Below, one piece after another: positions 40,101 through 46,100 of a stretch of DNA of 64,000 nucleotides (position 1 is its first letter; the number at the start of each line of letters is the position of its first letter). This stretch comes from Escherichia coli (GTDB taxonomy: Bacteria; Pseudomonadota; Gammaproteobacteria; Enterobacterales; Enterobacteriaceae). The position numbers are program-made. Location: NCBI RefSeq assembly GCF_050320075.1, contig NZ_CP190019.1. One strand, given 5' to 3'.

Positions 40101-43100
40101 TTATCAATGACCATGCCAACTTCATTATCTGTGCCCAGAGACAGCGCATTCAGCAGTGCCGGTGGGACGGTCAGCATAACTGAGCCGCCAACCCTCTTCA
40201 GTCGGGTGGTATGCATTCTTCACCTCCATAAAAGTTATATTTAAATATAACATCCACTAAAAAAACACACCAGGCTTTAACGCACAATGTTTAATAAAAA
40301 TATAACTTTCAACCAAACAGTAAACCCAGCGTGGTTGCTTCCATATGCAGCAATACCGGCAGCAGCAGGCCACCACTTCTGATCCTGGCCACTGATGTAA
40401 TCAACCCCACCAGGAACAGTTCTGCCAGTGTCAGCAGGTTCTGATACTGGCTGTGCGCGGCGACGAACAACAACGACGTTATCAGCGCCCCCAGCCACAT
40501 CGTCCAGCAGTACCGTGAACGGAAGACGTTCAGCATAATCCCCCGGAACAGCGTTTCCTCATTCAACGGGGCAAGGATAAAGATGGTCAGCAACGTCAGG
40601 ATCACGTCAGGTATGGACTTATCGGCAAAAAGTTTCGTCATAAATGGCTCAGCAGGCAGAGCCAGCGCCTTACCGAGCAGAAATACACCGACATACACCA
40701 CGGCCATCGCACCGACCAGCCACGGTACGCCAACGTTGCGCAGCTGACCAACGACCGGTAGCGGAGCTATCCAACGGCGGTATACCAGGAAAACACACAG
40801 CAGGTACATCAGAACAGTACCATGACTGAAGAACAAATAGTTTTTTCCTGATCCATAAAGCAGAACGGCCTGCTCCATGACAAATCTGGCTCCCCAACTA
40901 ATGCCCCATGCAGCCAGCATAACCAGCATAAACTGCAGATATTGATTACGTGTTTGAATCATTGCATCGCCTGTAAATTTTTAACTTGTCCTATTTTTGT
41001 CATTACCACGTATATACACATGTATAACAATTCAGATATCGTTACCAGGATATGCCGCATCAGCGGCATGGAAGGCGGCACTCTGTTGTTTCATATGATA
41101 CAGGAGTAAAACCGCCGAAGCCCGGCGTAAGCCGGTACTGATTGATAGATTTCACCTTACCCATCCCCAGCCCTGCCAGACCATACCCGCTTTCAGCCAT
41201 GAGAGAGCTTCTGTGCGCGGTCGGAGTGGTCCCGACGAGGGTTTACCCGAAGTCGGGGCGTATCTCCGCGTTAGCGGGCCGTGAGGGCCGCTTACGAGCG
41301 TGTACTGAGAACTTCCAGCGAGAAGACTGACAGCGATGAAGATGTAGTTACAACATTCATAATTAAAAGCGACTCTGTTCCGGCCCTTTGGGCCGGGGCG
41401 GGGCCGCTTTTCAGTTATGAGGGAGGGGCTTTGTGGTTTCAGTTCTGCGCTGGTTCGGGGTTTTTCTGGAGGTTGGTTTTGTGTGTTGTAACTAAAGTGG
41501 CTCCGGTTGGGGCCCGCCGTTTACGGTGGGAGGTGCATATCTGTCTGTCCACAGGACAGGCAGTGAATAGGTTTTCTTTTTAAATGAATGTAATTAAGTA
41601 GTTTAAAGGAGATATAAACAGGTGTTTAAAAGATACATTGCACCCTGTAAGGCTGGCGCCTGGCGCTTTATGACATGAACGGTTGTAACCTTATGGGGAA
41701 GTCCATTGCAGTTAAATGTGGATAAGCAAAATTCCCCGTCTGTGAGGCGTGTTTTGTATCAAAAACAGGGGGGGCCAGATGCACCAGAAGGTGGATGATG
41801 AGGTTGTTTTTTGTAGTAACCGGCTCATTTAAACCGTCTGGTCTGTTTCCTCCGGCTCTACAAAAATAATGTCCATCATTTTTAATGGACACTATCGTAT
41901 GAAACACCGGACCTGGATCACTGAAGCTTTACGTCTTCACTTTGAAGAACATTTACCCCGGGTTGTGGCCGGGCGTCGCCTGGGTGTACCAAAATCAACA
42001 GTTTGTAGTATGTTCGTGCGCTTTCGGAGAGCTGGCCTTTCGTGGCCTTTGCCCGCAGGCATGTCGGAGCAGGAACTTGATGCCTGCCTTTACGGACAAT
42101 TTTCCACGGTACCAGTCGTACGTCCTGAAAGCACCGTTATATCCGAAGCCCCCGTGGTAAAAAAACGTCCCCGGCGGCCCAACTTCCCTTATGAGTTTAA
42201 AATCGCCTTAGTGGAGCAGTCACTGCAGCCCGGAGCCTGTGTGGCGCAGATCGCCCGGGAAAACGGAATCAACGATAACCTGCTCTTCAACTGGCGCCAT
42301 CAATACCGGAAAGGTGGCCTGCTGCCTTCCGGAAAAAATATGCCGGCACTGCTTCCCGTGACGTTAACGCCGGAGCCGGATAATAAAATCCCGGCCCCCG
42401 CACAGGAACCAGAGCAGATAAATACACCGTCCGACAGTCTGTGTTGTGAGCTGGTTCTGCCGGCCGGAACTCTCAGGCTTAAAGGTAAACTGACGCCGGC
42501 GTTATTACAGACACTTATCCGCGAAATAAAAGGGAGCAGCCACTGATGATATCTCTCCCTGCAGGTTCGCGTATCTGGCTGGTTGCAGGTATCACCGATA
42601 TGCGAAATGGCTTTAACGGCCTGGCATCAAAAGTTCAGAACGTCCTGAAGGATGACCCGTTCTCCGGACACCTGTTCATCTTCCGCGGACGCCGGGGTGA
42701 CCAGATAAAAGTGTTGTGGGCTGACAGTGACGGACTGTGCCTCTTCACCAAACGCCTGGAGCGGGGCCGCTTCGTCTGGCCAGTCACCCGTGACGGCAAG
42801 GTGCACCTTACTCCGGCTCAGTTATCCATGCTTCTTGAAGGTATCAACTGGAAGCACCCGAAACGAACGGAACGCGCTGGAATCCGCATATAACCCGTTG
42901 TAAAGTGAGGATATGGACACCTCACTTGCTCATGAGAACGCCCGCCTGCGGGCACTGTTGCAGACGCAACAGGACACCATCCGCCAGATGGCTGAATACA
43001 ACCGCCTGCTCTCACAGCGGGTGGCGGCTTATGCTTCCGAAATCAACCGGCTGAAGGCGCTGGTTGCGAAACTGCAACGTATGCAGTTCGGTAAAAGCTC

Positions 43101-46100
43101 AGAAAAACTTCGTGCAAAAACCGAACGGCAGATACAGGAAGCACAGGAGCGAATCAGCGCACTTCAGGAAGAAATGGCGGAAACGCTGGGTGAGCAATAT
43201 GACCCGGTACTGCCATCCGCCCTGCGCCAGTCTTCAGCCCGTAAACCGTTACCGGCCTCACTTCCCCGTGAAACCCGGGTTATCCGGCCGGAAGAGGAAT
43301 GCTGTCCTGCCTGTGGTGGTGAACTCAGTTCTCTGGGATGTGATGTGTCAGAGCAACTGGAGCTTATCAGCAGCGCCTTTAAGGTTATCGAAACACAACG
43401 TCCGAAACAGGCCTGTTGCCGGTGCGACCATATCGTGCAGGCACCAGTACCTTCAAAACCCATTGCACGCAGTTATGCCGGAGCGGGGCTTCTGGCCCAT
43501 GTTGTCACCGGGAAATATGCAGACCATCTGCCGTTATACCGCCAGTCAGAAATATACCGTCGTCAGGGAGTGGAGCTGAGCCGTGCCACACTGGGGCGCT
43601 GGACAGGTGCTGTTGCTGAACTGCTGGAGCCGCTGTATGACGTCCTGCGCCAGTATGTGCTGATGCCCGGTAAAGTCCATGCTGATGATATCCCCGTCCC
43701 GGTCCAGGAGCCGGGCAGCGGTAAAACCCGGACAGCCCGGCTGTGGGTCTACGTCCGTGATGACCGTAACGCCGGTTCACAGATGCCCCCGGCGGTCTGG
43801 TTCGCGTACAGTCCGGACCGGAAAGGTATCCATCCACAAAATCACCTGGCCGGTTACAGCGGTGTGCTTCAGGCCGATGCTTACGGTGGTTACCGGGCGT
43901 TATACGAATCCGGCAGAATAACGGAAGCCGCGTGTATGGCTCATGCCCGGAGAAAAATCCACGATGTGCATGCAAGAGCGCCCACCTACATCACCACGGA
44001 AGCCCTGCAGCGTATCGGTGAACTGTATGCCATCGAGGCAGAGGTCCGGGGCTGTTCAGCAGAACAGCGTCTGGCGGCAAGAAAAGCCAGAGCCGCGCCA
44101 CTGATGCAGTCACTGTATGACTGGATACAGCAACAGATGAAAACACTGTCGCGTCACTCAGATACGGCAAAAGCGTTCGCATACCTGCTGAAACAGTGGG
44201 ATGCACTGAACGTGTACTGCAGTAATGGCTGGGTGGAAATCGACAACAACATCGCAGAGAACGCCTTACGGGGAGTGGCCGTAGGCCGGAAAAACTGGAT
44301 GTTCGCGGGTTCCGACAGCGGTGGTGAACATGCGGCGGTGTTGTACTCGCTGATCGGCACATGCCGTCTGAACAATGTGGAGCCAGAAAAGTGGCTGCGT
44401 TACGTCATTGAACATATCCAGGACTGGCCGGCAAACCGGGTACGCGATCTGTTGCCCTGGAAAGTTGATCTGAGCTCTCAGTAAATATCAATACGGTTCT
44501 GACGAGTCGCTTACTTTTTGTATGAGGTGCTGCTTTTTTGTTCGCTGGCAGGCTTCAGGCGTGCGAATGCCTCCGGTGCGGGCCGGATTATTCAGAAGAG
44601 GTCACTTTCAGGGGGAAGCTGTGGCCAGCCGGCTGTAATTACGGTTACGTGACAGAATCATGCGCTCTTTCACACGACGCTCCACTTCGCGTTTTACCGC
44701 CTCACGATTGGCAGTGAAGCGCCCTTCCGAGATTTCACGCGTCAGCTGCCGTTTCACCAGGGTGACGATATCCTGACGTTCCCTGTTCGCATCACGACGC
44801 GCACGGGCACGCTTTATTCCACGGGACTTAAGCTCTGTCTGGTAACTGCGGAAACGCTCACGCACAAAACGCCAGGCTTTCGCTATCAGTTCATCCATAC
44901 CCAGGGTATCCAGCCCCTGCTTTTTGCGCTGTCTGTTTTCCCATTCAACACGACTGCGGCGCGCAGCAACCACTGCATCCTCAGACACATCAAGGGCGGC
45001 AAATAACGCCGGTGTGAACGTGATATCGGTCGGAATGTAGCACCCGATAAGCGGATCATATTCCGTCTGGTAGGTAATCAGTCCCAGCTCTGCAAGGAAC
45101 GTCAAGGCTCGGGAGGCCCGGGTGATGGAGAGTTTTCCGGCAGCAGACTCCGTCGCCAGTCCGCACTCAATGGCCAGCGTAGTGATGGAGCACTGGACGC
45201 GGTTGGCCAGCGGGTCATAGTGAAAACACAGCCCCTGCAGCAGCGCATCAATAGCCCGGCGACGCAGTACCGGTGGCATGCGCCGACGCAGTCCCTTCGA
45301 ACGGGCATGTGCCACATGAATGGCGAAATCAAAACGGGAGGTGAAGCCCACCGCCTTTTCCATCAGTTTTTCGCAGAACTTCAGCGTTCCGGCACCTTCA
45401 CGGGGTGTGAACACCGGATTCGGATTTTTAACCTGTGAATAGTATTTTTGAAGGAGATCAGCCATGTCCCCCTCCAACACTATTCCCCCTCCTACGGGCG
45501 GTAACTAGCTCGTCTGGGCCGACACGTAAAGTTTCGAACATATCTGGTCTGGACCAGATGGTTCCTCCATCAAAAGCGATGAGATGAAGATCATTATCAA
45601 GAGTTTTGAGGGCTCTCCAAACACGAGTGTATGAACCTCCACTACAAACTGAAAGCTCTTTAACAGATAAGTTAACTTTGTTCGTATCAGGGATGTAGTG
45701 TGCGCACATTACTTGTACGAGGGAAACATAAAAACTAACCATCGACGCGCTGATTTTATTTTTACGTTTGCCATGCGCTATTGCAAGCAAACCTCTGATG
45801 AAGATCAGATGCTTGAAGGAGTCAAAATGAGCCCTTTTCTGGAGAAGGCTGCAAAACGGGTGAGGATACTTGCTGGAATCAATGTGAAGATCTGATTCAA
45901 TCCCACCCGCTATTACTGAATGTGTTTCATGATTAGCCACACCATCCTGCACTTACAATGCACAGAAGGAGTGAGCACAGAAAGAAGTCTTGAACTTTTC
46001 CGGGCATATAACTATACTCCCCGCATAGCTGAATTGTTGGCTATGCGGTTTTATGGGGCCCCGGTAATCTTTCTAGTCGCCAAACTTGAAGAAGATTATC

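Follow-up and report, generated by a model that had tools for sequence, protein, structure and literature searches.

ISCro1 between repA1 and the predicted origin of an IncFII replicon in Escherichia coli

The IncFII replicon and its ISCro1 insertion

We analyzed a 64,000-nucleotide stretch of Escherichia coli plasmid DNA (contig NZ_CP190019.1 of assembly GCF_050320075.1; referred to as the window) in which an insertion sequence (IS) of the IS66 family, ISCro1, lies within an IncFII-type replicon, between the initiator gene repA1 and the DnaA box of the predicted origin, oriR. The replicon is on the minus strand of the window. Its repA1 gene (44608..45465, minus strand) encodes an intact IncFII initiator of 285 amino acids (aa) that scores 580 bits against TIGR03474 (cut-off 446.9), and its coordinates correspond to those of the WP_000774297.1 gene of IS-free relatives. 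Upstream of it lie tap, which encodes the RepA leader peptide (45933..46007, minus strand; coordinates carried over from the annotation of plasmids p13P484A-2 and pKMi012_1), and repA2/copB, which encodes a replication regulatory protein (46239..46496, minus strand; annotated in IS-free relatives). With a RepA1-family initiator, repA2/copB and tap upstream, and an oriR composed of a DnaA box followed by AT-rich 9-mers, the replicon is of the IncFII type by its sequence features. MOB-suite types it as 'IncFIC'. In the MOB-suite assignments distributed with PLSDB, the single F33 IncFII replicon of pHN7A8 (NC_019073.1) is labelled 'IncFIA' and FII replicons of the window type 'IncFIC'; replicon labels in these tables are therefore not to be read literally.

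The IS occupies 41816..44514 (plus strand) and is an intact, 2699-bp copy of ISCro1, with 100% nucleotide identity over its whole length to many plasmid copies annotated under that name, which is also met in a paper on Citrobacter rodentium. We set its limits from the flanking target-site duplication and from IS-free relatives. When scored with NCBIfam models, all three of its open reading frames (ORFs) exceeded the curated cut-offs: tnpA (41869..42546, plus strand), an IS66-like accessory protein of 225 aa (NF038385, 295.8 bits against 150); tnpB (42546..42893, plus strand), an IS66 accessory protein of 115 aa (NF033819, 128.9 bits against 50); and tnpC (42913..44484, plus strand), the IS66-family transposase of 523 aa (NF033517, 477.9 bits against 180), which reads towards the 3' end of repA1. 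The terminal inverted repeats, GTAACCGGCTCATTTAAACCGT at the left (41816..41837, plus strand) and GTAAGCGACTCGTCAGAACCGT at the right (44493..44514, minus strand), are imperfect and start with GTAA; compared with the reverse complement of the right end, the left end is the same at 16 of its first 22 bases. The ISEc23 copy in locus L021 has GTAAGCG ends, the same as those of ISCro1 in the window. The element is flanked by the 8-bp sequence TTTTTGTA on the left (41808..41815) and by an exact repeat of it on the right (44515..44522). The tnpA-tnpB-tnpC order, the 8-bp duplication, the GTAA-type ends and the identity to a named element place it in the IS66 family. A sequence-only reading of the window had already described a 2699-bp IS66-family element with an exact 8-bp duplication, and the NCBIfam scores, the identity to ISCro1 and the IS-free relatives all bear this description out.

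A scan for promoters and terminators around the IS returned nothing above the expectation from shuffled sequence, terminator-like sites included. At 44494-44522, on the plus strand, a weak terminator-like hairpin followed by CTTACTTTTT is formed by the right IS end together with the T-rich target duplication; it would face tnpC transcripts running towards repA1.

The right end of ISCro1 lies 93 bp from the repA1 stop, which ends at 44608, and its left end lies 90 bp from the DnaA box TTATCCACA (41717..41725, minus strand), which is invariant across the FII alleles that we aligned. Both distances agree with those of the sequence-only reading. With the IS taken out, 175 bp separate the repA1 stop from the DnaA box; the corresponding spacer of plasmid R1, CIS, is about 170 bp long. 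For all positions called reference below, we used the window minus the IS, read in the orientation of the replicon. On this scale 1993 is the last position of the repA1 stop, the target site spans 2079-2086 and the DnaA box 2169-2177, and three TCNTTTAAA 9-mers follow at 2261-2269, 2284-2292 and 2307-2315. In window coordinates these AT-rich repeats, identified by motif and conservation, are TCTTTTAAA (41625..41633), TCCTTTAAA (41602..41610) and TCATTTAAA (41579..41587), all on the minus strand.

When eleven FII alleles were aligned, reference positions from about 2140 to 2370 hardly varied; this block contains the DnaA box and all of the 9-mers, and the spacer upstream of it is more variable. 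In R1, about 21 bp separate the left edge of oriR from the DnaA box within it, which would put the minimal origin at about reference 2148-2335. We thus predict a minimal oriR of 188 bp at 41559..41746 (minus strand), with limits that derive from these R1 coordinates rather than from an alignment with R1, together with allele conservation and motifs. Judged by the conserved block or by the R1-based limits, the whole of the predicted origin lies beyond the IS as seen from repA1. Motifs and allele conservation thus uphold the placement of the IS between repA1 and the oriR DnaA box, and the arrangement that would have spoken against the sequence-only reading, an origin wholly on the repA1-proximal side, is not the one present: the conserved origin motifs are all on the far side.

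ISCro1 therefore divides the spacer, whose two halves we assigned by position. The repA1-side half (44523..44607, minus strand), which belongs to the 3' untranslated region of repA1, is C-rich and G-poor and now runs into the right end of the IS, and the origin-side half (41747..41807, minus strand) is now 2.7 kb away from the gene. Across reference 2040-2140, the sense strand of repA1 has a C/G ratio of 2.5-3.0, and the insertion is at the centre of this tract. Such a composition is that of a Rho-loading site, and by analogy we infer Rho dependence in this replicon. The spacer fits CIS by position, length and composition, and is predicted to act as a terminator. RepA has been described as mainly cis-acting, with a Rho-dependent terminator required, in a paper that cites Masai and Arai 1988 by its title (PMC3495755), and the composition of the tract agrees with that title.

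The replicon shares with the basic replicon of R1/R100 (NR1) the order copB/repA2, copA, tap, repA1, CIS, oriR, repA4, as well as TTATCCACA about 175 bp past the repA1 stop, three TCNTTTAAA 9-mers, and then tir and pemIK downstream. It differs from R1/R100 in having a 160-aa ORF between tap and repA1 and a spacer split by an IS. This comparison draws on motifs, conservation and R1 coordinates rather than on a direct alignment. In the window, the tir position downstream of oriR is held by a gene for a CPBP-family membrane protease (40309..40962, minus strand), followed by the annotated pemI/pemK toxin-antitoxin pair (39625..40216, minus strand); we assigned these positions from the gene order repA4, tir, pemI/pemK given for pEC958 (PMC4398462).

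The 160-aa ORF (45458..45940, minus strand) is WP_001273588.1 in relatives of the window, and pHN7A8 lacks both it and the approximately 466 bp between tap and repA1 that hold it. Its product is weakly similar to the N-terminal part of IncFII RepA (E = 0.004). The similarity suggests that two FII replicons recombined and that the ORF is what is left of a second repA; the presence of the ORF would break the usual direct translational coupling of tap to repA1. The tap-160-aa ORF-repA1 arrangement forms the sole replicon of pEC258-1, and the same tap-ORF-repA order has been described in the 6.3-kb plasmid MiniR1-1, in a paper that also states an oriR1 of 188 bp (PMC5883639).

A recent insertion at a new site

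The uninterrupted site is present in thousands of IncFII plasmids. In several IS-free plasmids, the two flanks are each matched at 100% and the matches overlap by 8 bp, as in NZ_CP029748.1 (176553-176752 and 176745-176944). Plasmid p13P484A-2 carries the unsplit site GGTTGTTTTTTGTATGAGG, in which TTTTTGTA occurs once only. Because TTTTTGTA is single in IS-free relatives, its two copies in the window are a genuine target-site duplication and not a chance repeat. When the IS and one copy of the duplication were removed, the 3694-bp module from pemI to repA2 differed from p13P484A-2 and from pKMi012_1 by 1 mismatch. The IS-free state is therefore ancestral and the insertion recent and derived, which answers the proviso of the sequence-only reading that the split arrangement might be ancestral for this replicon type. 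The sole mismatch lies at window position 45552, outside repA1. We considered it as a candidate compensatory mutation and rejected it, as p14406-FII has the same base and the change is a shared polymorphism. Nothing in the sequence suggests later decay or compensation after the insertion.

Searches of PLSDB, of complete RefSeq E. coli genomes and of GTDB representative genomes did not turn up the exact junction of the window. The ORF that runs across the junction had no counterpart in the protein collection searched, and an IS26 junction specific to the lineage was absent from RefSeq E. coli. Compared with many annotated copies of ISCro1, the one in the window is the same in sequence, gene order, length of duplication and GTAA ends, and differs in its insertion site alone. 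Thus, the element is known and the IncFII variant is known, and only this insertion site is new.

A repeated IS that has been placed wrongly during assembly could produce a similar picture. ISCro1 is a multi-copy repeat with matches in 2449 PLSDB records, and short-read assemblies can misplace such repeats. However, the perfect 8-bp duplication of a site that is single in IS-free relatives is the signature of a real transposition, and complete plasmid records contain independent insertions 2 bp away. We consider an assembly artefact highly improbable.

Recurrent IS66-family insertions around oriR

To look for related insertions, we built chimeric queries in which an IS end is joined to the repA1 flank, in both orientations. 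These queries matched 9 PLSDB records in the orientation of the window and 31 in the opposite one, and 6 and 25, respectively, among complete RefSeq E. coli genomes. A bias towards the window orientation was rejected, since the reverse query gave more records. Altogether, we found at least 13 other independent insertions of IS66-family elements (ISCro1 and ISEc23) within 225 bp of the window site, in both orientations, and seven of them fall within the origin core. The sequence-only reading had therefore overrated how unusual the arrangement is: IS66-family elements have hit the same zone repeatedly in sequenced plasmids.

We mapped these insertions by their 8-bp target duplications, giving positions on the reference and orientations relative to the window. 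The nearest to the window site, at 2081-2088 (target GTTTTTTG, 2 bp away), are those of ISCro1 in p1258b and of its sister element ISEc23 in pMB6206_1, both in the same orientation. Further along, 2103-2110 is occupied in pHNAH212872-1 and pAPEC2908 (same orientation) and in pGZM7a (opposite), 2114-2121 in pA68_p1 (opposite), and 2149-2156 in pTS14 and pHSKP1-2 (opposite). Beyond these lie pRHB14-C23_2 at 2182-2189, p14406-FII at 2198-2205, STEC704 plasmid unnamed5 at 2263-2270, pESBL3284-IncF at about 2275-2282 (mapped from its right flank only) and EC130 plasmid unnamed1 at 2279-2286, all in the same orientation, and MS 85-1 plasmid unnamed2 at 2286-2293 and STEC1099 plasmid unnamed3 at 2296-2303, both in the opposite one. 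Like the insertion in the window, those in p1258b, pMB6206_1, pHNAH212872-1, pGZM7a, pTS14/pHSKP1-2, p14406-FII and others were made by ISCro1 or a sister element, fall within this zone of 225 bp and have target duplications of 8 bp. They differ from it in position and occur in both orientations, and seven insertions are in the origin core rather than in the spacer. The window site is the nearest to repA1 among all that we mapped. Three events within 2 bp mark the A-tract GTTTTTTGTA as a local micro-hotspot, and the last 60 bp of repA1 contained no insertions among the chimeric-query matches.

Judging from their positions, the seven origin-core insertions must inactivate oriR. All 14 of the carriers typed by MOB-suite have IncFIB. 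As origin-core insertions are found in sequenced plasmids and IncFIB in the typed carriers, the FII origin appears to be dispensable in this plasmid family.

Recurrence of this kind could reflect selection, with insertions favoured for silencing FII in a multi-replicon plasmid, for example by ending competition between copy-control systems. The repeated hits in the spacer and origin of IncFIB+FII plasmids fit this idea, as does the spread of a single lineage whose ISCro1 copy lies a short way upstream of the DnaA box: the junction spacing seen at 2149-2156 recurs in plasmids of E. coli, Salmonella, Klebsiella and Shigella. As a control, we moved the anchor of the queries by about 3 kb, to the finO 3' end, and obtained 46 + 23 = 69 PLSDB records, compared with 9 + 31 = 40 at the repA1 flank. 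A landing preference of the IS would thus explain the recurrence without any need for selection. Moreover, copA and repA2, the incompatibility determinants, are intact, which would leave incompatibility unrelieved, and the end of repA1 is free of insertions. Selection for silencing is therefore an improbable account, and origin-specific targeting by ISCro1 was rejected, as the finO control zone has at least as many insertions.

In the 69 control records, an ISCro1 end lies downstream of finO, within about 650 bp of its 3' end, at many spacings (the equivalent of window 47300-47957). From these counts, F-type plasmids seem to gather IS66-family elements regionally, with the stretch from finO to oriR as the sink. 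This stretch would replicate last in a unidirectional FII plasmid. In pMTY1586_IncF (L010, NZ_CP135713.1), ISCro1 at 4416-7114 is bordered on one side by repA4, the CPBP protease gene and pemIK, whereas the other side leads directly into a hypothetical gene and a truncated finO; repA1 and repA2 are missing. In sequence, this plasmid looks like a case of IS-associated deletion of the FII initiator region.

Backbone, second replicon and consequences of the split

The window reaches 44.6 kb and 17.5 kb to either side of FII. We found no second initiator gene in these 64 kb, where all ORFs of at least 150 aa in 1-37,100 were compared with NCBIfam and 47,958-64,000 was matched to the tra genes of pEC258-1. 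The closest IS-free relatives, p13P484A-2 and pKMi012_1, are both IncFIB+IncFIC plasmids of 140-150 kb, and the RepFIB gene of p13P484A-2, at 84.5 kb, is about 83 kb from FII, a distance beyond the reach of the window. Plasmids with 100%-identical flanks are nearly all 85-278 kb in size, and most of them are IncFIB+FII plasmids of more than 100 kb. Judging from these relatives, the plasmid probably has a second replicon outside the window. We also considered whether the plasmid could be a derivative of the single-replicon plasmid pHN7A8 (F33:A-:B-), and rejected this, as the replicon and tra region match pEC258-1 and p13P484A-2. The copA/repA2 region of the window is 81% identical to that of pHN7A8, the replicon is not F33, and the tra side is 89-97% identical.

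We favor the reading that ISCro1 recently hit a redundant FII replicon in a plasmid that is kept by a second replicon beyond the window. An active copy of ISCro1 would have transposed into the spacer of about 175 bp between the repA1 stop and oriR, and the break lies at the centre of that part of the repA1 3' untranslated region which is richest in C and poorest in G. If published work on R1 applies here, the split stretch would be the Rho-dependent terminator that underlies RepA cis-action. The repA1 transcript would now run on into the IS through its right end, in antisense to tnpC, and would end far from oriR, such that delivery of new RepA1 to its own origin would be weakened or lost. As the backbone lineage mostly also carries RepFIB and the FII origin seems dispensable, a second replicon would most likely maintain the plasmid, and the insertion would be neutral or nearly so, one of many IS66-family hits in this F-type region. 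How much the split matters would depend on the nature of cis-action. If transcription stalls beside oriR for RepA1 to be loaded, the replicon should be impaired; if cis-action needs only that gene and origin share a molecule, the split replicon may still work.

A classical precedent is the RepFIC replicon of the F plasmid, which Saadi et al. reportedly described in 1987 as interrupted by Tn1000. That case is similar in that a redundant FII-type replicon is disabled by a mobile element and other replicons maintain the plasmid. It differs in that repA1 itself is reportedly interrupted in RepFIC; in the window, genes and origin are intact and the linkage alone is broken.

Several findings weigh against a plasmid maintained by another replicon. 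The second replicon is deduced from relatives and was not seen within the window. In addition, repA1 and oriR are still on one molecule, and the effect of the 2.7-kb spacing on initiation is a prediction. Plasmid pEC258-1 (50,185 bp), which is 99.984% identical to the window over 18,350 bp of tra and replicon backbone, has the same replicon as its only initiator gene; this type of replicon is thus able to work by itself, and the parent may have had a single replicon. Finally, three small carriers of ISCro1 in the control zone are also multi-replicon. The presence of IncFIB in all carriers therefore says little on selection against insertions in single-replicon plasmids, and we rejected the 14 of 14 typed carriers as a sign of it, since control-zone carriers give no contrast.

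The case of pEC258-1 lends some weight to the alternative that IncFII is the only replicon and still works, with RepA1 made 2.7 kb away on the same supercoiled molecule finding oriR, perhaps less efficiently; neither close spacing nor an unbroken spacer would then be strictly required. Consistent with this alternative, the window retains repA1, tap and copB undamaged along with all of the origin motifs, and it has no second initiator gene beside them. Moreover, an R1 mini-plasmid was given a second copy of repA under another promoter, a design meant to raise replication through extra RepA, and the abstract of that study reports efficient induction (PMC10989972). On the other side, IncFIB is present in each of the 14 typed plasmids that have an IS66-family element in the zone, and most backbone relatives are IncFIB-positive. 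The requirement of the spacer terminator for cis-action, stated for R1 by Masai and Arai (1988) in their title as cited in PMC3495755, also stands against it. FII is the working replicon of pEC958, and there saturating transposon mutagenesis gave no insertions in repA1, in repA4 or in the FII origin region, with the spacer not resolved in the text (PMC4398462). We therefore regard a still-functional sole IncFII replicon as possible but unlikely, and a plasmid that has no other replicon and is run by IncFII with repA1 and oriR 2.7 kb apart and CIS split as slightly less likely again.

The sequence-only reading had left a choice between a replicon that tolerates the spacer and reliance on another replicon. 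The comparisons lean towards the second replicon, which is fairly likely, over a tolerated split replicon, which is doubtful. The strongest indirect support for tolerance by way of another replicon comes from the seven origin-core insertions together with IncFIB in every typed carrier. Taken with the recurrence of IS66-family insertions in this zone, the arrangement is most likely an ordinary, tolerated insertion.

Outside the replicon, positions 1-39400 of the window hold a mosaic resistance region with seven ORFs for IS26-type transposases of 240 aa. The resistance genes in the window are rmtB, blaCTX-M, blaTEM, mph(A), aac(3)-II and aph(3')-Ia; blaCTX-M adjoins an IS903-type transposase gene and a truncated gene for a TonB-dependent receptor. 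An IS26-bounded resistance module at 14.3-39 kb is 99.7% identical to that of pHN7A8-like F33 plasmids. The presence of a pHN7A8-like module on a backbone of another lineage suggests module exchange through IS26. A gene for a group II intron reverse transcriptase/maturase of 555 aa (15440-17107, plus strand; TIGR04416, 384.9 bits) sits in backbone DNA common to pHN7A8.

The split replicon has a practical side. Replicon typing based on repA and copA calls FII present even though its initiator is uncoupled from its origin, and such a replicon may not work. This caveat bears on the incompatibility, copy number and host range that are predicted for multidrug-resistance plasmids. The natural IS66-family insertions, at graded distances from repA1, also amount to a ready-made set of mutants in which RepA cis-action can be related to the spacer. 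Should the plasmid prove to lack any other replicon, it would speak directly to the old question of cis-action: RepA1 would need neither adjacency to its origin nor an intact CIS, and the window would offer a natural construct with which to separate a 'same molecule' model from one of 'co-transcriptional delivery'.

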